Shown piece by piece: positions 16,432 through 58,281 of a DNA stretch of 64,000 nt. Below the pieces are notes generated by a model. That model was given only the letters and a program-made list of their open reading frames with translations. It searched no databases and had not been told where the DNA came from. Positions within the stretch are counted from its first letter, which is position 1. The number at the start of each line of letters is the position of its first letter. The stretch is taken from assembly GCA_963764715.1 (NCBI GenBank), contig CAVXTP010000022.1, forward strand, positions 608,001 through 672,000. Reading direction: 5' to 3'. Origin of the DNA: an uncultured Acidobacteriota bacterium (GTDB taxonomy: Bacteria; Acidobacteriota; Thermoanaerobaculia; UBA5066; Gp7-AA6). The position numbers were made by a program, and so were the translations under genes.

Positions 16432-17190
16432 CTAGGCCGGGAACCCCGTCGCGACCGTCAGGTACGAGGACAGGAGCTCGCCGATCAGGACGAACACGAG
16501 GGCGACGTAGAGGAGACCGGTCGCCGCCTGGTTCGACTTCAGCTCGGCCGTCCGCCAGATGAAGTAGGAGAGCGCCAGCGGACCGGCGATGCCCCAGAGC
16601 ACGCGGAAGAGGAAGAAGAGCGCGTCCCGCTCGAGGGAGACCAGCGTCTGCACGCCCTCCGAGTGCCGCTGGACGGTCACGGCGACCGCGAGGTACGCGG
16701 TCCGAAAGATCGCGAGCCCGGCGAAGAGCGCGGCGCCGCGCGCCAGCAGCTCGAAGGGCAGCGAGCGGGAAACGAGGTACCAGTGGCCGAGGTTCATCAC
16801 CACGAGCACGGAGCCGAAAAACAGTCCGCCCGCCACCGCGCCAACGACCGTCCACGCGTCGCCCGAGTCCCGCGGCGCGACCAGAGCGACCCGCGCCAGG
16901 GCCCAGCCCGCGCAGCCCGCTCCGGCGAGCAGAAGGATCCTCGCCCGGCCGGCCTCTCCCCCGTTCGCCAGAATCGTATAGGCCGCCAGGAACCCCGTCG
17001 CCGCGGCCGTCAGCGCGAACGGCAGCCCCGCCGGGCGGACGGCGAGAGCCAGACCGCAGAAGATCGTGGCCAGCGCGCCGTGAAGGGAGAAGAAGCCGCG
17101 GCCCAGGACTTTTGGAGGGAAGAACAACAGCAGGAAGGCCGTGCCCGTGCAGGCCTCCAGCAGGAAGAGCCCCAGACCCGATAGCGCCAT
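16432..17190 (-). CDS. Hypothetical polytopic membrane protein
   Basis: About 8 hydrophobic segments, LGHWYL and ATGLLY motifs; TAGAAT 9 nt upstream of the ATG. Confidence 0.75.
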   Translation of the reverse strand: MALSGLGLFLLEACTGTAFLLLFFPPKVLGRGFFSLHGALATIFCGLALAVRPAGLPFALTAAATGFLAAYTILANGGEAGRARILLLAGAGCAGWALARVALVAPRDSGDAWTVVGAVAGGLFFGSVLVVMNLGHWYLVSRSLPFELLARGAALFAGLAIFRTAYLAVAVTVQRHSEGVQTLVSLERDALFFLFRVLWGIAGPLALSYFIWRTAELKSNQAATGLLYVALVFVLIGELLSSYLTVATGFPA

Positions 17191-17234
17191 GAGGCGCCGA
17201 TTCTATCCGGTGAAGGCCCGCTGCCCTCCCATTC

Positions 17235-17867
17235 TCACCGTGCCTCCGACACGGCGCGAATCGCTCGAGTGATCTGCGGAACGAAGTCGACCAGCCCGTG
17301 ATCGCCCTCCGGAATCGGGACGAACCTGGACCCCGGAGCGAGTCGGCCGCTCTCCTCCCAGCGCTTCCAGGTCGTCTTCACACCTTCGAACGGCACGCTC
17401 TCGTCCCGCTCCCCCATGAGCACCGTGACGCGCTGAGGAGGAGGATCCCGGTCGACGTCGAGCGCCGCCATCTCCTCGAAGAAGCGCCGATGGATCTCGA
17501 GCTCCTGCCCCTGCCCGTGGTGGAAGAACCGCACCGGATCGCCGGGAGCGAGCTTGTCGATCCACCGCGAGCCGAATGCCAGCGCCGGTGCGATGAGGAC
17601 GAGCGGGGCACTCATCCCCCTCTTCGCCGCCGCGAGCGCCGCGAGGGCCCCGAGCGAGCTGCCAACGACGACGGAGGGCGATTCGGACGAAGCCGCGCGC
17701 ACGGCCTCCTCCACGATCGCGTCGAAGCTCAGATATCGGAACGAGGGCCGGTTCAGGTCCGGCGCGACGACCCGATCGCCGAGCGGCTCGAGCGCCTCGC
17801 GAAGGAGCGCGATCTTGCGCCCGTTCGGCGAGGAGGCGAAGCCGTGCAGGTACAGGATCGTTCCCAC
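17235..17867 (-). CDS. YqiA/YcfP-family alpha/beta hydrolase (esterase)
   Basis: LYLHGFASSP, GSSLG, DESVP, GDH catalytic triad. Confidence 0.88.
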   Translation of the reverse strand: MGTILYLHGFASSPNGRKIALLREALEPLGDRVVAPDLNRPSFRYLSFDAIVEEAVRAASSESPSVVVGSSLGALAALAAAKRGMSAPLVLIAPALAFGSRWIDKLAPGDPVRFFHHGQGQELEIHRRFFEEMAALDVDRDPPPQRVTVLMGERDESVPFEGVKTTWKRWEESGRLAPGSRFVPIPEGDHGLVDFVPQITRAIRAVSEAR

Positions 17868-18003
17868 GCGGGAACAATATCGTCGAGGGCCGATCAGAAC
17901 CCGAAGGGCACCATCCGGTCTCGCGGTGGGATCGGGGGCGGAGGAGGAGGACCAGGCGGGCGGCGCGACCGTCGGAACAGTGCGAGGAGGCGACGCCAGA
18001 GAG

Positions 18004-19524
18004 TCAGAGGCGGCCCTCGGCCTGCATGTTTCTCAACTCTGCACGCAGCTGACGTACGGCATCCGCCCCAGGCTGTTGCCGTCGTACTGCTTCTCGAAGA
18101 ATACCGATTGCCGCAGCTGCCTCTTGAGTCAAGTCTTGCTTCTCGATTATCGGCAGAGCCGTGAGAATTTCGACTACAGCTCGTGACGGGAGGTTAACCA
18201 TCAGCAAAACTTCAGCAAGCACTATCCGGGTGTAGGCAGCCAAGAATCGCATTTCGAGCGCTTCGTAAGACCGAACACTTGCGGAGTACGCCTCTATGGA
18301 TGCAGGAATCTGACCGTTGTCCCGCAAGATTTCACCGAGCGTCCCCTGAACGTTGGCCACAACCCACCTGCAGCCGGATCTGTCAGCAAGATCGATGGCT
18401 TCGTTCCATGCGGCCATGGTTTGCGCTAGAGCGCCTCGGCTGTTCAGCATTTCTGCTCGGTCGCACAATGCCAGAGCTGCGGTCAGGAAGTCACCGTTCT
18501 TCAGACAGTCGGCGTGGACTCGCTGAAGCACGCGAAGCCCTTCCTCATGCTCACCACACTCCTTTAGTGTGCGACCATGAAGAAGACTCGCTCTCACCGC
18601 TTTGTCGTGCATACCGAGAGTACAGAGCTCATTTATCAGAGCAGGGATCCTCAACTTGACCTCCGCGTACGCCCGATCTTGGTAGAGATTGATAAGTTGT
18701 ACTTGCTCGATCGAAGCACGGAAAGGGCCGGATCCACTGCAGAGCTGCGCGTGGTTCGTGGCCAGAGCAAGCAACTCCTGCCGGCTCCTGTCGCGACCCA
18801 GTTGGCTCTCTGCAACAGCCGCAGAAATGGCCGTTCCGGAGGCCAAGAAGTGCATCAACTCTTCGCGTAGACCACTCGCGACGCCATCTTCGATCAACCA
18901 CCTGTAAAGAGCTTCAGCTTCACGTCTGACCACCGCCGGCTCGCGATTAGTCCGTTCGCCCGTTACGCTTGCGTAAACGGTGAGAAGGACCGGCTCGTCG
19001 CTGAGGAATCGTCTGTCTACTGCGGCCGTTCTTACCTGGGTGCCAAGATTCAAGTAGTCACGGGTGTGCTCTTGCTGCAAAACGTGGCTAACGCAACGAG
19101 TCTGCCACTCTTTCGCGTCGCGGTACGCCCCCCTCCTTCGCCAGTGGTCCCAAGATAGGAAGGCGAGGCGGGCCAAGATCTGATGCTTCTCTCCGACCTC
19201 ATCGTCCCACGCTACGGCGGCTGCAACCTCATAGGTTCGGTTTAGCTCGGTTGCTCTTCCCGGGCAGCCGGAGTCCCGATCGCGATCGAGAAGCTCGGCG
19301 AGAGCGTGATAGATGTCCGGTGGGTGACAGGCCGCCTCCACCACGAGCTCCGCCATCGCGTAGGGATCGCCCTCGTTAAGGCCTCGAATGCGATCCTTGA
19401 GAGTCGCCGCTCTGCGCAACCAATCTTCAGGCGACGACGAGTCGGCTACATCCGAGGCCTGGGCTATGGTCACCCAACGTTGAATCCTGTTCAGTAAGTC
19501 CCGGCTAGGAATCGTCGACTTCAT
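18004..19524 (-). CDS. TPR-like helical repeat protein (module 2, 506 aa)
   Basis: Repeating LxxxG...EA helical pattern; C-terminal half clearly paralogous to 19996-21135. Confidence 0.8.
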   Translation of the reverse strand: MKSTIPSRDLLNRIQRWVTIAQASDVADSSSPEDWLRRAATLKDRIRGLNEGDPYAMAELVVEAACHPPDIYHALAELLDRDRDSGCPGRATELNRTYEVAAAVAWDDEVGEKHQILARLAFLSWDHWRRRGAYRDAKEWQTRCVSHVLQQEHTRDYLNLGTQVRTAAVDRRFLSDEPVLLTVYASVTGERTNREPAVVRREAEALYRWLIEDGVASGLREELMHFLASGTAISAAVAESQLGRDRSRQELLALATNHAQLCSGSGPFRASIEQVQLINLYQDRAYAEVKLRIPALINELCTLGMHDKAVRASLLHGRTLKECGEHEEGLRVLQRVHADCLKNGDFLTAALALCDRAEMLNSRGALAQTMAAWNEAIDLADRSGCRWVVANVQGTLGEILRDNGQIPASIEAYSASVRSYEALEMRFLAAYTRIVLAEVLLMVNLPSRAVVEILTALPIIEKQDLTQEAAAAIGILREAVRRQQPGADAVRQLRAELRNMQAEGRL

Positions 19525-19864
19525 CTTCTTTCTCTCTCGACTCAGCCTGCGTCCCCCACTTCCTACTTAGTGTCGCTCGCCGAACCGTCTTCCTGCGGTA
19601 GTTAAGTGAGAGGTGGTCAACAACTTGAATTAGCCAAGCCTTCGGGTTTCCGGTACCACGCAGTCTAGTCAGGGCTAGCACAAACGCATCTTGAACAATG
19701 TCTCTAGCGTCTTCGGGCGGAAGGCGATGTTTCCATATCGCTCGGCGAACCAGCGGCTGAAAAATCCCTCGGTAGAAACCGTCCAACTCCTGATCGGACA
19801 CCGGCTCGCGCGGGTTGGCTACTCCCTCTTCAGGGGACGCCTTTCGGCCGTGACGCACAGACAT
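19505..19864 (-). CDS. Sigma70/ECF region-2-only protein (module 2)
   Basis: DARDIVQDAFV...NPKAWLIQVVDHLSLNYRRK matches ECF region 2; stops about 25 aa later with no region 4; SD GAGGGG before ATG 19864. Confidence 0.8.
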   Translation of the reverse strand: MSVRHGRKASPEEGVANPREPVSDQELDGFYRGIFQPLVRRAIWKHRLPPEDARDIVQDAFVLALTRLRGTGNPKAWLIQVVDHLSLNYRRKTVRRATLSRKWGTQAESREKEDEVDDS

Positions 19865-19995
19865 CCGAGCCCCCTCTTTGCACACTCCAGGAGCCTCTAA
19901 CTACATATTGTCACCAGAGGTTCGAGGTAGCGACAAAACCAGTGCGGACCCGGGACGGGGGCCTGGCGGCCAGGCCTATCTTGCTGAAATTATAG

Positions 19996-21135
19996 CTACT
20001 TGATATTCCTGAGGGCGATACGCAGGTTGGTGAGCGCCGTGAGATCGGTTTCCCGCGACCTTACAGATTCCCGTAGGAGACCGATAGCCACAGCTGCTTC
20101 TGGAGCCATTTCCTGCTCTTCGATTGTTGGGAGAGCTTTCAGGATCTGCCACTCGGCCTCTCTCGGCCGGCCAGCTTGCAACAGGGCCTGAGCCATCACC
20201 ACGCGGAGATAAGCAACCCAAGTGGCCATCCCCAGGTCCTCGTACGACGAAGCAGCAGATGCGTATGCCTCAACCGCCGCCGCGATCTTCCCTTGTCTCT
20301 GAAGGATTTCGCCGATCGTTGCCTTCAGATGAGCCAGGGCCGCAGGCTTGTTGGCCTTCCGAAGGAGCGGAAGGGCCTTGGAGCAATACTCGTTCGCCAG
20401 ATCGTCTCGCCCTTCAGCAGCTTCCAGCTCCGCAGCGCTAACCAGGGCAAACCCTACTAGTCCGGGTTCCGATTCGAGCACCTCGACCCTAGCCAAGGAC
20501 ACGAAGACGGCGAGCGCCGCGTCGGAGCGACCGAGTTCTTTCAAGGAAACACCGTGAAGAAAGACACACTTCGCCTCGTCGCGAACCATGCCCAGACGGG
20601 AAAAAGTTGCGGCCAACATTGGTGCGAGTTCGGCCACTTCCTCGTAACGTCCCGACTCACAGCGCGAGGACAGCCTTTGATAGGTAACCCTGGAGAGGAG
20701 CGGAGCGGGATTAACCGTCTGGCGGAAACCGGCCTCTGCCCGATCCAACCAAAGCTCGGACTCCCCTCGTCTGCCGATTATTCTGCTTGCTGTTCCGGCC
20801 AGCAGTGCCAGCTCGCCCAAGAAAAAATCTCTCTCGTCGAATCCGCCGATCCGTTCCGTCGAATTAGCAATCGCTCGATAGAGTTCCTGCGCTTCAGCAC
20901 TCACCACCGCCGCGCAAGCATCAATTTTCTCTCGCAGTAGTCCGCAAACTGCGAGCAGCACGTCCGGCGCGCGAAGCAGATTGCGACGGCCCTCGGCCGA
21001 GATGCCAGACTCCAGAGCCAGCAAGTATTCATTGGCCCGCTCACACGCTTCTGCCCGGCTCATCCCAAGCGGGGATTGCGGCCGCGGGAAGTTGAGAATT
21101 CTCGCCGTCTCAGGCATCTGAACGTCGGAAGTCAT
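19996..21135 (-). CDS. TPR-like helical repeat protein (module 1, 379 aa)
   Basis: Helical repeats e.g. LHGVSLKELGRSDAALAVF, TIGEILQRQGKIAAAVEAY; alternative start at 21117. Confidence 0.82.
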   Translation of the reverse strand: MTSDVQMPETARILNFPRPQSPLGMSRAEACERANEYLLALESGISAEGRRNLLRAPDVLLAVCGLLREKIDACAAVVSAEAQELYRAIANSTERIGGFDERDFFLGELALLAGTASRIIGRRGESELWLDRAEAGFRQTVNPAPLLSRVTYQRLSSRCESGRYEEVAELAPMLAATFSRLGMVRDEAKCVFLHGVSLKELGRSDAALAVFVSLARVEVLESEPGLVGFALVSAAELEAAEGRDDLANEYCSKALPLLRKANKPAALAHLKATIGEILQRQGKIAAAVEAYASAASSYEDLGMATWVAYLRVVMAQALLQAGRPREAEWQILKALPTIEEQEMAPEAAVAIGLLRESVRSRETDLTALTNLRIALRNIK

Positions 21136-21508
21136 AAAGCTTCAGACTGCGAGAAAAGTCGTGCGCCACGTCTGCAGGCTCTCCGCTAGGAGGATCTGCG
21201 AGCTTCTGGTCGGAGTCACGTACGCCAGTGCCAACGATGTACTTTTGATATTCGCGCGCAAATTGACAGCACGCCACGAGCAGGAAGGGCCGGTTTTCTC
21301 GGGGAGAGGCACCAGGCCGATAGCAGAAGCGACGGAACCAAACGAAGAGGTCCTTCTCAAGTTCAGTTGCTTCTTGTTCAACCAGGCGATAGTGGGAGAC
21401 CAGCGCGATATGAATGAGTCCGAGCGTTTCTTGGAAGACCGCTTGCACGTCTCGCTCGAACAGATTCTCGGCTGACTCCGCGCCACTGACTTCGTCCGAT
21501 ATTTCCAT
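21110..21508 (-). CDS. Degenerate sigma70 region-2-like small protein (module 1)
   Basis: HYRLVEQEATELEKDLFV...RPFLLVACCQFAREYQK aligns by eye to KHRLPPEDARDIVQDAFV...KAWLIQVVDHLSLNYRRK; SD AGGAG upstream. Confidence 0.65.
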   Translation of the reverse strand: MEISDEVSGAESAENLFERDVQAVFQETLGLIHIALVSHYRLVEQEATELEKDLFVWFRRFCYRPGASPRENRPFLLVACCQFAREYQKYIVGTGVRDSDQKLADPPSGEPADVAHDFSRSLKLYDFRRSDA

Positions 21509-21536
21509 TTTGCCCGCTCCTGCTTGTGTCTTGGCA

Positions 21537-21564
21537 ATCTTAGTCCGCCATGAAAATAAAGCAA
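21537..21564 (-). promoter_or_regulatory. Putative sigma70 promoter for the island operon
   Basis: Minus strand TTGCTT-N16-TAAGAT, about 28 nt before ATG 21508; adjacent upstream hairpin ctgccc-aaac-gggcag. Confidence 0.4.
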
Positions 21565-21907
21565 GAGCTATCTGCCCAAACGGGCAGTAGCTAACAAGTC
21601 ACGTAGATTCAGCTGGTTAGGCCTGTGTTAGCAGGGAATGTGACCAGTGAACGAGTTCAAGCAAGCCACCTTTCGCCAAATGACCAGGGCAAATCGCCCG
21701 GGTCGAAAACCTGCACCTGAGGTCAGCGCCCACCGCACGAAAGCTCGCCAAAGCGAAGCTCCGCCGGTACGCCAGCTCCAACATCAGGATTCCCACCTAC
21801 TTGAGCGGACCGCCGCGCGGTCCGGTAAACGAATCAATGTGTATTTGATCACACCCGCGGCGAGGGGTGTCAAGGGATTTTGTCGCCCCGGGAGGGCGGC
21901 CGGCCGG

Positions 21908-23389
21908 TTACCCCTTCTGGATCAGGGTCCGGACGAGGCGGTCCTGGTAGGCGTGCCCACGGGACTCGCTGACGCCGGGCCCGTTGAGCAGGATGGCGAA
22001 GGCGTAGGTTTTCCCGGAGCCCGCCTGGGCATAGCCGGCGAGGGTCGAGACGCCGTTGAGGGTGCCCGTCTTGGCCGTCACCTGGCCCCGGCTGCGGCTG
22101 TCGAGCAGGCGGCCCCGGAGGGACCCGTCGGCCTCGCCCGAGATGGCCAGGGTCGACCGCCAGAGCGCCCCCTGGGGGTGGCTGTTCATGGCCTTGAGGA
22201 AGCTGACGAGGTCCCCGGCCGAGACCCGGTTGTTCGCAGAGAGGCCCGACCCGTCGCGCAGCTCGAACCGCTCGGCGTCGAGGCCGAGGCCGGCCAGGAA
22301 CTGTTTCTCGAGGGACAGGGCGCCGGTCCAGCTCCCCTTCCCCGTCTTCTCGTAGGCGAGAGTCTTGAAGATCTGCTCGGCGTAGAAGCTCTGGCTGCGC
22401 TTGTTGGCGATCGAGAGCGTCGGGAGGATGTCGGACTCGGTCGTCGCCACCAGCAGCCAGGCGTTGTCGGCCGGCACGGCGCGCTCGACGACGTTGCCCG
22501 TCAGCTCGATTCCCGCCGCGCGCAGGCGGCTGCGCAGCGCCGCTCCGAAGAACTTCGGCGGATCGTCGATGGCGAGCGGCGCGGCCCAGCGGAAGTAGCG
22601 GGCGGGCACGGTCCCCGAGACCGTCACCACGTCCGAGCCGCTCGGGCGCGCGACGGCGATTCGCACCTTGCCGCCCTTGCCGACCGTGCGCGCCCGGGCG
22701 AGCGCCTGCACGATGTCGGTGTCGGGATCGATCGTGACGCTCGCCGGAGCGCCCGGAATGGCGCCGCGGCCGACCGAGACCACGACCACGTTGTCGTTGT
22801 ACGAGAGGGCCGAGATCGGGGCCTGGTACCAGCGCGAATCCCGCTCCGGCGGCCAGTCCGGATGGCGGTATTCCTCGTCGAACGAGCTCGCGTTGAGGAT
22901 CAGGTCGCCCGTGACCCGCATGATGCCGGCCTGGCGCAGTCCCGCGGCCCACTTGTCGAAGATGGCGAACGAATCATCGTCGTAGAAGCGCCCGGAGATG
23001 TTGGGGTCTCCGCCGCCGACGACGAGGAGCGAGCCGAGCAGGTTTCCGTCCTTGATGTCGCCGCGGCGCCAGAAGGTCGTCCGGAACTTGTAGCTCGGCC
23101 CGAGATAGTGCAGCGCCGTCGCGGTCGAAATCATCTTCGTGACCGAGGCGATCGTTTCCGGCGTCGACGGGTTGCGCTCGAAGACGATCTCGCCCGTCGC
23201 GAGATCCGCGACGGCGATCGAGACGCCCGACTTCCTTGCCGGCGGACGGAAGGCGGCGCTCTCGAGCGCCGAGCGCAGCGACGGGGCTTCCTTCGTCGTG
23301 CGAGTCCGCGCCGAAAGCGGCGAAACGAGGAGCAGGAGGACGGCGTGGAGCGCCGCAACGCGGACGTATCTGCGCGCAGCGCTCGTCAC
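21908..23389 (-). CDS. dacB: D-Ala-D-Ala carboxypeptidase/endopeptidase PBP4 (peptidase S13)
   Basis: Signal peptide, ASVTK (SxxK), GGGDP, DGSGLS, KTGT; SxN appears as SQS. Confidence 0.88.
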   Translation of the reverse strand: MTSAARRYVRVAALHAVLLLLVSPLSARTRTTKEAPSLRSALESAAFRPPARKSGVSIAVADLATGEIVFERNPSTPETIASVTKMISTATALHYLGPSYKFRTTFWRRGDIKDGNLLGSLLVVGGGDPNISGRFYDDDSFAIFDKWAAGLRQAGIMRVTGDLILNASSFDEEYRHPDWPPERDSRWYQAPISALSYNDNVVVVSVGRGAIPGAPASVTIDPDTDIVQALARARTVGKGGKVRIAVARPSGSDVVTVSGTVPARYFRWAAPLAIDDPPKFFGAALRSRLRAAGIELTGNVVERAVPADNAWLLVATTESDILPTLSIANKRSQSFYAEQIFKTLAYEKTGKGSWTGALSLEKQFLAGLGLDAERFELRDGSGLSANNRVSAGDLVSFLKAMNSHPQGALWRSTLAISGEADGSLRGRLLDSRSRGQVTAKTGTLNGVSTLAGYAQAGSGKTYAFAILLNGPGVSESRGHAYQDRLVRTLIQKG

Positions 23390-57580: not shown

Positions 57581-58281
57581 GACCTCACCCCCTCCCGGCG
57601 CGAGATCGACAGGGCCTCGCGCAGGGCGTTGATTCCGCGATGGACGTTCGACTTGGTCGTTCCCAGGGGCTGCCGCAGGACCGTGGCGACCTCCTCGAGC
57701 CGGAGGCCCTCCACGTAGCGAAGCTGCAGCGGCGCCCGGTAACGCTCCGGCAGCGCGGCCATCAGGTCCGCGATGTCGCGCCGCTCCCGCGCGCGCTCGT
57801 ACGCGCGGTCGGGCCCGTCGGCGTGGTCCGCCGGCTCCCACCTCTGGTCGCTGTCGGCCGAGACGGGCTGGTCGAGCGAGACCGTGCGGAGCTTCTTGCC
57901 GCGGAACCGGTTCCGCGCCACGTTGAGCGTGATCCGGTAGAGCCAGGGACGCAGGGCGAGCGCCCGGATGCGTTCGGCCGGGTACGTCGCGAGCGCCCGG
58001 TACGCCCGGACGAAGGCGTCCTGCGCGACCTCCTCCGCGTCCTCGCGCCGCCCCGTCAGCCGGAGGGCATACGAGAACAGCCGGTCCTGGTAGACCCGGA
58101 CCAGCTCCTCGAACGCGCCGTCGAGGTCCTCCGCGACCGATTCCCGGAGTCTTTCTTCCTGCGACATCGGCGACCGACCGCCTCTCTGCTCGTCCGGCTG
58201 ACCCATCACCAGCCGGAAATCCGATCTCCCCGCGACCGGCCAGGGGACGCGCCCCGTGTCCGGCGCGCATTCGCTCGTCAT
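57577..58281 (-). CDS. ECF RNA polymerase sigma factor
   Basis: DAEEVAQDAF, WLYRITLN (region 2); LPERYR, GTTKSNVHRG (region 4); GGAGG SD before ATG 58281 (alternative 58167). Confidence 0.9.
   Translation of the reverse strand: MTSECAPDTGRVPWPVAGRSDFRLVMGQPDEQRGGRSPMSQEERLRESVAEDLDGAFEELVRVYQDRLFSYALRLTGRREDAEEVAQDAFVRAYRALATYPAERIRALALRPWLYRITLNVARNRFRGKKLRTVSLDQPVSADSDQRWEPADHADGPDRAYERARERRDIADLMAALPERYRAPLQLRYVEGLRLEEVATVLRQPLGTTKSNVHRGINALREALSISRREGVRS

Follow-up and report, generated by a model that had tools for sequence, protein, structure and literature searches.

Paired sigma-2-type and TPR genes at a fixed chromosomal site in Acidobacteriota: a candidate mode of transcription control

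Introduction

What might two small genes, at least one of which encodes a sigma factor domain 2 with no domain 4 after it, be doing in tandem with two genes for helical-repeat proteins? The question arises from a 64,000-nt stretch of DNA from an uncultured Acidobacteriota bacterium, hereafter the window, in which a sequence-only reading had pointed to two tandem units, each a short frame overlapping the start of a large helical-repeat gene. It suggested that both short frames were sigma-2-only proteins held, released or complemented by their partners, which would sense a ligand or peptide, or else acting as RNA polymerase decoys. In whole sigma factors, domain 2 attaches to the beta-prime clamp helices of RNA polymerase and also recognises the −10 element. 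To our knowledge, a lone sigma-2 domain has been shown to have a cellular function of its own only within two-subunit sigma factors. We found no published description of a half-sigma with a separate TPR partner in tandem pairs.

Results

The open reading frame listing gives four co-oriented genes on the minus strand, arranged as two pairs of a small protein and a helical-repeat (TPR) protein, SA-TA and SB-TB. SA (21110–21508) encodes 132 aa with a sigma-2-like predicted fold and no Pfam family, and its stop overlaps the start of TA (19996–21135) by 8 or 26 nt, depending on the start of the latter. TA is a cytoplasmic TPR protein with a 379-aa frame; the cluster representative (P0121, 373 aa) agrees with the start MPETARI at 21117, which gives a 373-aa form. 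SB (19505–19864) encodes a stand-alone ECF-type sigma region 2 of 119 aa; its longest frame extends to a GTG start (19505–19885), and because the homologues begin MS.R.., the ATG at 19864 fits as the start. The stop of SB overlaps by 20 nt the start of TB (18004–19524; 506 aa), which consists of an N-terminal domain (ND) of about 150 residues (19075–19524; motif W.DD.FGEK in alignment A3) and a TA-like body. TA and TB are paralogous proteins, 31% identical across 351 residues (E 4e-28), so that both the two overlapping units and the kinship of the large proteins were read correctly at the outset. The arrangement is best read as a single operon in which SA is cognate to TA and SB to TB.

Searches of Pfam and NCBIfam at E up to 1 gave no CHAT, kinase, HTH or zf-HC2 match in the four proteins, nor did these libraries return a receiver or STAS domain. 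Neither TA nor TB matched an anti-sigma domain family (Pfam and NCBIfam, E up to 1), their translations lack the zinc motif HxxxCxxC, and the highest 19-residue hydropathy in the cassette is 1.72, at TB residue 427 within the TPR region. The earlier remark that no CHAT protease, kinase, HTH or transmembrane anti-sigma is visible here thus stands. Examined for ORFs of at least 60 aa, the intergenic gaps (110 and 136 nt) contain none. Several features had been overlooked: the four genes are a single conserved unit at a fixed site, their GC is persistently low, hypervariability and reshuffling among relatives mark the TPR genes, TB carries the extra ND, and SB is of ECF41-type origin.

Judged by its sequence, SB is a true ECF region 2 and derives from an ECF41-type sigma factor. 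It matches Sigma70_r2 (PF04542) with E 5.8e-9 and a score of 36.1 bits, where the cut-off is 24, whereas none of the four proteins matches region 4 (PF08281, PF04545) in Pfam at E up to 1, as had been claimed for the frame at 19505–19864. A PDB profile search with SB led to region 2 of SigJ and SigR. Of the full-length relatives found, the nearest to SB are of the ECF41 type (41% identity); the C-terminus of SB lies about 20 residues past region 2, at the W of the sigma2-sigma4 linker. Region 2 of SB is almost invariant (28 invariant columns in 26 sequences), and its region 2.2 core-binding helix reads DARDIVQDAF, with R at the third position of what the accessible text of PMC8999054 gives as the canonical DAED motif. 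Could SB be a truncated copy of a full-length ECF factor, a possibility that would have told against the original idea? Its best 120 homologues are all 83–147 aa long and carry PF04542 alone, so that SB is no truncation but one of a conserved family of short forms. Complete ECF sigma factors number more than 20 in the same genome, and 23 of its 27 Sigma70_r2 matches adjoin a Sigma70_r4_2 match; SB adjoins none, and a genome-wide PF08281 scan gave no match at the cassette locus.

The case of SA is different in kind. SA has no Pfam or NCBIfam match, and it resembles SB weakly (BLASTP E 0.045; hhalign probability 28%, E 6e-4, in the same register). When its AF2 model (pLDDT 85.3) was submitted to a wide VIA-align search, 14 of the 16 top rows were, by title, ECF sigma-2 chains or sigma complexes, with Z scores of 9.2–7.4 (SigR 9.2, SigH 9.2, SigK 8.9), a range that VIA-align calls common for helical bundles; Foldseek returned nothing at E<=0.001. 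By predicted fold, therefore, SA appears to resemble ECF sigma-2 domains. The claim that both small proteins are sigma2-only is accordingly borne out by sequence for SB; for SA the sequence gave no such result and the predicted fold is what suggests it. The SA family comprises 77 representatives among 1.84 billion proteins, and the acidic residues equivalent to DAED are not retained across it. One SA-like protein (P0223, 193 aa) combines an SA-like part with a C-terminal GerE HTH, a relative of sigma-4, and in another (P0203) the SA-like part runs into a receiver-GerE regulator, which may be a gene-calling fusion.

TA and TB belong to no characterised family by Pfam, NCBIfam and PADLOC-type profile searches, a point on which the original proposal might have failed; TA gave TPR, MalT-TPR and SNAP matches in Pfam, all of them sub-threshold, and for TA and TB alike the families matched in Pfam and NCBIfam are solely of TPR type. 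TA has 74 homologues, and a word-based search found three others for TB and no more. Within TA, alignment A4 contains an invariant FDE motif at residues 93–95 and nearly invariant N136, P137 and P139. The strongest conservation in both TA and TB lies in the C-terminal 80 or so residues, a feature that an anti-sigma-like model does not explain. The AF2 model of ND (pLDDT 90.4) has exclusively TPR-type structural neighbours (Z up to 9.6) and no Foldseek match at E<=0.001. ND and an SA-like domain are fused in other proteins, and at one locus (L009) such an ND-SA fusion adjoins an SB-like gene.

Do the partners bind each other? Structure prediction of the pairs had been suggested as a check, and when it was run on SA and TA the co-fold reached an ipSAE of 0.77 (runs 0.79, 0.75 and 0.77) against 0.00 for the best of three controls. 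Of 80 solved complexes 58 attain this mark, as do 2 of 110 mismatched pairs, a calibration that holds only roughly here because the alignments were our own. At least 50% of the contacts are common to the runs, and the partner pLDDT is at least 73. In the model, the N-terminal half of TA lies over the SA face equivalent to sigma regions 2.2–2.4: SA residues 53–67 and 72–86, which correspond to the latter half of the 2.2-like helix, a loop and the 2.3/2.4-like helix, are contacted by a part of TA (residues 17–180 of the 373-aa form, 20578–21069) whose contacts include FDE 93–95, N136, P137 and P139. Among syntenic orthologues, the predicted TA interface is conserved at 0.50 and the rest of the protein at 0.43, a difference short of significance (permutation p 0.12). 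The model supports direct binding of SA by TA; SB and TB may bind as well, through ND. Hence the suggestion that a TPR protein holds a half-sigma gains support from prediction where SA and TA are concerned.

How old is this arrangement, and how is it kept? In its own genome and in 14 relatives, 15 genomes in all, the cassette occupies one chromosomal spot, flanked by the same pair of housekeeping genes. The order PBP4-SA-TA-SB-TB-esterase is present in two relatives (G389, G286), that from PBP4 through TB in a third (G024), and 11 further MAG loci, of which two are truncated at the PBP4 end, have the same order; a sixteenth genome (G357) has SA-TA alone. Neither the 14 SB-carrying loci of relatives nor this SA-TA-only locus contains an extra gene inside the cassette. 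Both flanks, PBP4 and esterase, are visible in 11 of those 14 loci and leave no space for one; the other three (G024, L029, L031) have one flank unseen or set apart. Within the phylum Acidobacteriota, which was the one sampled, the cassette was seen in one family only. Pairing, whose absence would have weakened the proposal, is kept in 15 of 15 SB-carrying loci, and at paralogous TPR loci an SA-like ORF lies directly upstream of the TPR gene in six of eight. The cassette has a GC content of about 58% against about 70% in the flanks, some 12 points lower, and because this holds in every genome examined we consider that it is not a recent import. It carries no marks of a mobile element in the form of a tRNA or flanking repeats.

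At this constant address the genes diverge very unequally. SA, with 61–87% identity among syntenic relatives, is the most conserved gene of the cassette and behaves like a housekeeping gene, whereas TA retains 32–54% and TB 25–39%. In genome pairs with flanks 93–95% identical, TA is 28–58% and TB 35–56% identical, and the Spearman correlation with flank identity is 0.22 for TA against 0.80–0.84 for the esterase and SA, although these pairwise comparisons are not independent and some MAG loci contain frame breaks. One genome pair has TA 89% identical between flanks at 84%. Hypervariability and reshuffling from relative to relative thus characterise both TPR genes. Because a third module of native GC evolves at the rate of its flanks, the hypervariability is specific to the cassette. 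The cassette is an unusual evolutionary object, in which a conserved gene shares a fixed, persistently GC-poor address with two genes that are hypervariable and reshuffled.

Upstream of SA we found a candidate sigma-70-type promoter (21843–21873, minus strand), supported by conservation in alignment A6 and unlisted by a simple promoter scan. It consists of TTGACA (21873–21868), a 19-nt spacer ending in TGA, with an extended −10 TG at 21851–21850, and TCAAAT (21848–21843). TTGACA is exact in 11 of 15 sequences, and in the motif TGTGnTnnAAT the letters G, T, G, T, A, A and T are invariant in all 15. The stretch that follows (21553–21824) is a putative structured leader RNA with three hairpins, judged by its folding across relatives. 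The first (21824–21806) folds in 12 of 15 genomes; the central one (21703–21683), followed by conserved TTTGGCGAAAGG, folds in 15 of 15, with compensatory changes in seven pairs; and a terminator-like hairpin (21592–21566), trailed by a T-rich run that reaches 21553 some 45 nt ahead of the SA start, folds in 13 of 15. The leader has no Rfam match. Across 15 genomes, its 400 nt contain no conserved small ORF, the frames and their lengths varying between close relatives.

Discussion

Which known system does the cassette resemble? An ECF (group 4) sigma/anti-sigma operon, in which the anti-sigma gene is co-transcribed and coupled in translation, likewise has a small sigma-type gene followed by an overlapping partner, SB is an ECF region 2, and the predicted contact covers the region 2.2–2.4 face. 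However, the cassette has two tandem pairs, its sigma proteins lack domain 4, and its partners are soluble TPR proteins in which an anti-sigma domain, a zinc motif and a membrane span are all lacking; compared with class I anti-sigma factors (zf-HC2), TA and TB have neither a family match at E up to 1 nor HxxxCxxC. Region 2 of SB is closest to that of ECF41 factors of the SigJ type, and SB ends at the W of the WLPEP linker motif, an ECF41 hallmark according to the portion of PMC3426412 available to us. ECF42 offers a precedent for TPRs that control a sigma factor, as described in the accessible parts of PMC7826278 and PMC8999054. In both ECF41 and ECF42, however, one polypeptide carries regions 2 and 4 together with a C-terminal SnoaL-like or TPR extension, whereas in the cassette region 4 is missing, the TPR protein is separate, and TA and TB match no ECF42-extension family in Pfam; ECF42 had been rightly set apart for this reason. 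The large ECF census, insofar as the accessible text of PMC7826278 describes it, retained only two-domain proteins, so that single-domain forms fell outside it. In two-subunit sigma factors (B. subtilis SigO-RsoA, Tn916 Sig7-8, T4 gp55-gp33), a region-2-only polypeptide is encoded beside a partner gene, but there the partner contributes region 4 or makes a beta-flap/clamp contact; in the cassette no region-4 subunit was found and ND is TPR-like, which agrees with the initial view that SigO-RsoA has another layout.

We propose, tentatively and with a probability of about 0.45, that TPR proteins acting as anti-sigma-like sensors sequester sigma-2-only proteins which, once released, act on RNA polymerase. 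SA and SB would each be a stand-alone sigma domain 2, and TA and TB would each serve as a soluble, cytoplasmic anti-sigma whose N-terminal half wraps the region 2.2–2.4 face of the small protein; with this face covered, the bound protein would be blocked from RNA polymerase. The hypervariable repeat surfaces (TA residues ~21–100 and ~201–300, and most of TB) may be the input side, where binding of a ligand or protein by the repeats would let the half-sigma go. The freed half-sigma would presumably bind core RNA polymerase and, lacking domain 4, compete with complete sigma factors and brake transcription, or else support initiation only where a promoter requires no −35 contact. Signal-dependent release, polymerase binding and output are the steps that we infer. 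The conservation of SA, in contrast to TA and TB, fits an SA bound to an invariant partner such as RNA polymerase and a sensor that tracks something variable.

Might the small proteins instead be one subunit of a split sigma factor? SA, SB or both could supply region 2 while a distant region-4-like HTH protein, for example of the GerE/LuxR type, recognised the −35 element and the TPR proteins served as assembly factors or regulators. Two-subunit factors exist (SigO-RsoA, T4 gp55-gp33, SPO1 gp33-gp34 and Tn916 Sig7-8, as listed in the accessible text of PMC7826278 and bioRxiv 10.64898/2026.10.01.756105), GerE parts accompany the SA-like parts of P0223 and P0203, and the genome has about 15 Sigma70_r4_2 matches without an adjoining region 2. 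All of these orphans, however, are distant from the cassette, the P0203 fusion may be an artefact of gene calling, region 4, GerE and other HTH domains gave no match to SA, TA, SB or TB at E up to 1, ND is TPR-like rather than an HTH, and 11 of 14 relatives' loci have no room for a further gene; we therefore regard this arrangement as unlikely. Sigma mimicry seems a little less likely again. PhyR, which has both sigma-like domains and a receiver, titrates NepR through its sigma-like domain in the PhyR-NepR-EcfG partner switch. By analogy, SA and SB might be decoys that draw the TPR proteins off complete ECF sigma factors or other proteins and never touch RNA polymerase. The degenerate sequence of SA, its predicted binding to an anti-sigma-like partner over the very face used by anti-sigma factors, and the more than 20 complete ECF factors as possible real targets would suit such a role. 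The cassette, however, contains nothing by which a decoy might be switched, be it a receiver or phosphorylation module, a STAS domain or a kinase, SA is far better conserved than its TPR partner, which a purely co-evolving decoy would not need, and region 2 of SB is nearly invariant.

Two further explanations concern what the TPR proteins sense. A fixed site, low GC and hypervariable genes usually mark recognition or conflict genes, and the TPR proteins may sense foreign (for example, phage) or strain-specific proteins, upon which the half-sigmas would shut down or redirect transcription. This would be a statement about biological role, and it is compatible with the sequestration mechanism. 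It is favoured by the divergence of TA and TB between nearly identical flanks, the uncoupling of TA from those flanks, the persistently low GC and the restriction of hypervariability to the cassette when set against the third module. Nevertheless we hold it to be improbable, for PADLOC-DB 2.0 (2023 library) gave one weak match (TA to PDC-M16B, E 0.093), no toxic effector is recognisable, a tRNA and flanking repeats are absent, the position is fixed across the family, which is unlike most defence islands, TPR scaffolds also drift fast under weak constraint, and the identity pairs are those qualified above for non-independence and frame breaks. Much the least probable, in our estimation, is peptide quorum sensing of the RRNPP kind (Rap, NprR, PlcR, PrgX, Rgg), with the TPR proteins as receptors of exported peptides and the small proteins as output domains in trans. 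The receptors of that group are likewise cytoplasmic TPR proteins of ~300–450 aa whose alleles diversify among close strains, the allele diversification here recalls pherotypes, and PlcR, RapH and Rgg2 look similar to both ND and the TPR bodies. Yet many other TPR proteins do so too, at Z up to 9.6, a likeness generic to the TPR fold; the cassette has no HTH, phosphatase or Rap-type match in Pfam, the leader has no conserved small ORF, and among frames of at least 60 aa the 110- and 136-nt gaps offer no peptide gene.

Returning to sequestration by TPR sensors, we may carry the idea one step further, into a version that we consider rather doubtful. Lone sigma-2 proteins would form a distinct class of effectors that target RNA polymerase and are kept inactive by hypervariable, recombining TPR sensors; a possibly foreign or strain-specific ligand would release the half-sigma onto the clamp helices, turning transcription off or redirecting it, and the leader RNA would add a second layer of control. 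If this were true, an immune-like sensor-effector logic would have been built of sigma/anti-sigma parts.

The half-sigma/TPR layout looks like an undescribed mode of transcription control. Should a lone domain 2 with a TPR holder work in the manner proposed, it would supply synthetic circuits with a compact protein pair and represent a new form of RNA polymerase control, either as a competitor or as a minimal initiation factor in place of a full sigma, in uncultured or little-studied soil Acidobacteriota, bacteria whose regulatory biology is almost unknown.

Gene organization of the cassette

Between a gene for a PBP4-type D-alanyl-D-alanine carboxypeptidase (stop at 21908) and an alpha/beta-hydrolase (esterase) gene (start at 17867), the window carries four genes on the minus strand. 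They encode, in order, a small protein SA (21110-21508, 132 aa), its TPR partner TA (19996-21135, 379 aa), a second small protein SB (19505-19864, 119 aa) and a second TPR partner TB (18004-19524, 506 aa). The stop of SA overlaps the start of TA, and the stop of SB overlaps the start of TB. P0121, the cluster representative for TA in the protein database, has 373 aa and fits a TA start at 21117; the SB homologues begin MS.R.., which agrees with the ATG at 19864. TA and TB are paralogues (31% identity, E 4e-28), and their TPR-type matches in Pfam and NCBIfam are all sub-threshold. SB has Sigma70_r2 as its sole match (Pfam, E 5.8e-9, above Pfam's cut-off), and SA has zero Pfam or NCBIfam matches. 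Hydropathy revealed no apparent membrane span in any stretch of the cassette proteins, and PADLOC (defence) and PHROGs (phage families) gave nothing usable for them. The anatomy of the cassette is established by these data. A sequence-only reading had described two units, each pairing a small protein with one of two paralogous large TPR proteins, and this observation was correct, because the ORFs, overlaps, paralogy, domain matches and lack of a membrane span all agree. One amendment to it is that, by sequence, SB alone of the two small proteins is recognizable as sigma-2.

SB is a stand-alone region 2

Could SB be a truncated gene or the product of an assembly error? A search of 5.8 billion proteins returned 421 matches, and the best 120 of these are all short (83-147 aa) and contain PF04542 alone; moreover, 14 relatives keep SB at the same site. 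These observations rule out truncation or misassembly, and the possibility that the homologues are normally full-length ECF sigma factors, which had been named as grounds for rejecting the idea, is contradicted by the same best 120 of the 421. When 26 of the short SB homologues are aligned, 28 columns are invariant, with the core of the conservation at FLPLVRRATWKH..EDARDIVQDAF and NPKAWLIQVVDHL. Sigma70_r2 matches the window's genome at 27 places. At 23 of these a Sigma70_r4_2 match follows just downstream; the remaining four comprise SB itself, one match at the end of a contig, a 219-aa frame and a frame of 569 aa, probably the primary sigma. An ordinary full-length ECF sigma with regions 2 and 4 also lies in the window (~57625-58104, minus strand; G000:C22:665625-666104 in genome coordinates) and is, as far as seen, unrelated to the cassette.

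Among 185,579 species genomes, the closest full-length relatives found for SB are actinobacterial proteins of the ECF41 type (41% identity to SB), in which regions 2 and 4 are joined by a SnoaL_2 extension. A hallmark of ECF41 is the WLPEP motif in the linker (PMC3426412), and the alignment of SB reaches the W of the ...DWLPEP linker of these relatives. Therefore, to judge from the alignment, SB appears to correspond to the first half of a sigma of ECF41/42-like type that was cut within the linker and then long retained.

SA probably has a degenerate sigma-2 fold

An exhaustive HMMER search of 1.84 billion representatives found only 77 relatives of SA, most of them 115-145 aa in length. An AF2 model built from 35 of these 77 had a pLDDT of 85, and its best neighbours among 48,161 PDB representatives were ECF sigma-2 domains (SigR, Z 9.2; SigH, 9.2; SigK, 8.9), although, as the tool warns, such Z values can be common among helical bundles. 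Further neighbours included RpoE, CnrH, SigW, SigL, AlgU, sigma-E region 2 and BldN, among others, and sigma chains or sigma-containing complexes, judged by title, made up 14 of the 16 top rows. Foldseek found no match of the SA model in the PDB at E<=0.001. A profile-profile comparison of SA with SB (hhalign) gave the right register but was weak (probability 28%, E 6e-4). The model suggests that SA likely has a sigma-2 fold.

Two metagenomic proteins carry an SA-like domain in a longer chain: P0223 (193 aa) is a fusion with a GerE HTH, and in P0203 (344 aa) the domain runs into a receiver-GerE response regulator, a fusion that may be a gene-calling artefact. Together, they hint at ties between SA and region-4-like HTH domains. 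The named ESM Atlas cluster closest to SA comprises 110-aa proteins (114 members, most commonly from Candidatus Cryosericota), and Sigma70_r2 is present in 58% of them; therefore, as a lead, short sigma-2-only proteins may also exist outside the phylum Acidobacteriota.

Predicted binding of SA by TA

SA and TA were co-folded using a 56-row alignment for TA and 35 rows for SA. The ipSAE was 0.77 (runs of 0.79, 0.75 and 0.77) versus 0.00 for the best of three controls; at least half of the contacts were common to the runs, and the partner pLDDT was at least 73. Of 80 solved complexes, 58 reach this ipSAE mark, as do 2 of 110 mismatched pairs; these counts hold only roughly here because the alignments were our own. 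The confident contacts of SA with TA are residues 14, 18, 53-67 and 72-86, which in the hhalign register fall in the latter half of the region-2.2-like helix, in the loop after it and in the 2.3/2.4-like helix. On the side of TA, residues 17-22, 51-55, 91-98, 135-143 and 175-180 make contact with SA, including the invariant FDE at 93-95 and the nearly invariant N136, P137 and P139; the conservation of the predicted interface was 0.50 versus 0.43 for the rest of TA, a difference that was not significant (p 0.12). Direct binding between SA and TA is supported by this modelling. It is through the region 2.2-2.4 face that whole sigma factors engage the beta-prime clamp helices and the -10 element; the role of the DAED motif is described in PMC8999054. 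By covering the corresponding face of SA, TA would bar SA from RNA polymerase.

Related modules and the partner of SB

A third TPR paralogue is encoded in the window's genome (C22:500607-501680) at native GC, with an SA-like gene directly upstream, so that the module spans G000:C22:500607-502033 on the minus strand (L002 1471-2942). Its neighbours, named by their translations alone, are an NmrA/DUF2867-like gene and a type II NADH dehydrogenase-like gene, and the module has 92-93% identity to its counterpart in the closest relative. An SA-like ORF is likewise found directly upstream of the paralogous TPR genes at six of eight loci in relatives, with none at L010 and L016.

The N-terminal ~150 residues of TB (ND, with the motif W.DD.FGEK) also occur in proteins of 245-271 aa, where they form the N-terminal half and are followed by an SA-like C-terminal half. 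We considered that this extension might hide a region-4 or HTH part, and this was ruled out, since the neighbours of the ND model (pLDDT 90) are exclusively TPR-type; Foldseek found no match of this model in the PDB at E<=0.001. At one locus in a family relative (L009; G357:C3:317592-321632), SA-like, SB-like and ND-TPR genes follow one another on one strand, and on the opposite strand an ND-SA fusion follows an SB-like gene whose DAED motif is canonical. With the single protein P0221 as query, no ND-SA fusion locus was found in the genome contigs, and L009 is the one genomic example seen. Every SB-type gene seen is thus followed by an ND-bearing gene, which suggests that ND may be the part of TB that contacts SB.

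Distribution and age of the cassette

Of 401 genomes sampled from the phylum, five matched the TA query (E<=1e-15), namely the window's genome and all four others of its family, with no match at this threshold in the other 396; the SA profile found the same five. The order PBP4-SA-TA-SB-TB-esterase is present in G389 and G286, PBP4-SA-TA-SB-TB in G024, and PBP4-SA-TA only in G357. G024 is an unpublished genome, on which the family count of 4/4 and the L021 rows partly rest. Through SB, we found 11 further Acidobacteriota/Thermoanaerobaculia MAG loci with the cassette order of G389, of which the contig of L029 begins inside TA and that of L031 shows only the end of PBP4. The gene order at these loci shows the SA-TA and SB-TB pairing to be conserved among the relatives that carry SB. 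Among sequencing runs listed as containing parts of the window, none was of RNA, and two soil-metagenome DNA runs from one study contained small shares (0.07 and 0.06).

SB of G389 is split over two frames (L018 7984-8305), and the reading frames of SA, TA, TB or the flanking genes are interrupted at several MAG loci (L022, L023, L026, L027, L028 and L032); these could be either pseudogenes or assembly errors.

The four cassette genes of the window have a GC content of 55-59% (GC3 57-63%) versus about 70% in the flanks. How might this difference have arisen? That a low-GC island was acquired horizontally in recent times is ruled out by the same site and the same dip in relatives, about 12 points below the flanks in every genome examined (the window, the four relatives profiled and the 11 MAG loci), together with the absence at the cassette of flanking repeats and a tRNA as marks of insertion. 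The low GC thus persists at this locus, and the cassette is an old unit with a fixed position that is specific to the family.

A conserved leader

The gap between PBP4 and SA (window 21509-21907, minus strand; the same gap in loci L018-L032) is ~400 nt long and conserved in 15 genomes. It contains a candidate sigma-70-type promoter, in which TTGACA and TCAAAT are separated by a 19-nt spacer whose last letters, TGA, provide the extended -10 TG; the -10 letters are invariant in 15/15. Compensatory changes are seen in three hairpins. The central hairpin folds in 15/15 and is followed by an invariant TTTGGCGAAAGG block; the last, which folds in 13 of the 15 and has a T-rich run after it, lies about 45 nt upstream of the SA start and is terminator-like, resembling an attenuator. 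The leader gave no support for a small peptide gene, as no small ORF is conserved in frame or length, and Rfam gave no match at E up to 1 over 17000-23000; so the leader may act as an attenuator or encode a small RNA.

Rapid change of the TPR proteins

Query-anchored pairwise identities were compared among 16 genomes; these pairs lack independence, and frame breaks occur at some of the MAG loci. The median identity was 78% for SA, 69% for the esterase, 60% for SB, 43% for TA and 30% for TB, and the Spearman correlation with PBP4 identity was 0.84, 0.80, 0.59, 0.22 and 0.62, respectively. The alleles of TA and TB are reshuffled relative to the flanks: near-identical flanks accompany TA identities of 28-58% (L019/L024: PBP4 95%, TA 58%, TB 35%; L026/L028: PBP4 93%, TA 28%, TB 56%), and more distant flanks accompany a TA identity of 89% (L019/L025: PBP4 84%, TB 26%). 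Within TA, residues ~21-100 and ~201-300 are variable, and ~101-200 and the last ~80 are conserved. The third module keeps pace with its flanks, with neither GC dip nor hypervariability (G000 versus G389: small protein 93%, TPR 92%, flanks 89-90%; G000 versus G286: 74%, 66% and 74%). These patterns point to diversifying selection on TA and TB and/or allele exchange, and we speculate that suppression of homologous recombination could account for the low GC of such a locus.

Relation to known systems

In its working, the cassette most resembles a sigma/anti-sigma pair. It does not fit the definition of an ECF sigma, as it lacks region 4, or that of a split sigma, as the operon contains no region-4 partner; nor does it fit those of the class I anti-sigma factors, the ECF42 sigmas or the RRNPP systems. 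The two-subunit sigmas listed as known are SigO-RsoA, T4 gp55-gp33, SPO1 gp33-gp34 and Tn916 Sig7-8 (bioRxiv 10.64898/2026.10.01.756105). A large ECF census kept only proteins with both domains and named split sigmas as still to be explored (PMC7826278). In full-text searches of the literature, we found no description of a sigma-2-only plus TPR layout. The cassette is real and conserved and is a candidate for a hitherto undescribed form of sigma/anti-sigma regulation, in which TA is predicted to bind SA and from which we infer a regulatory output.
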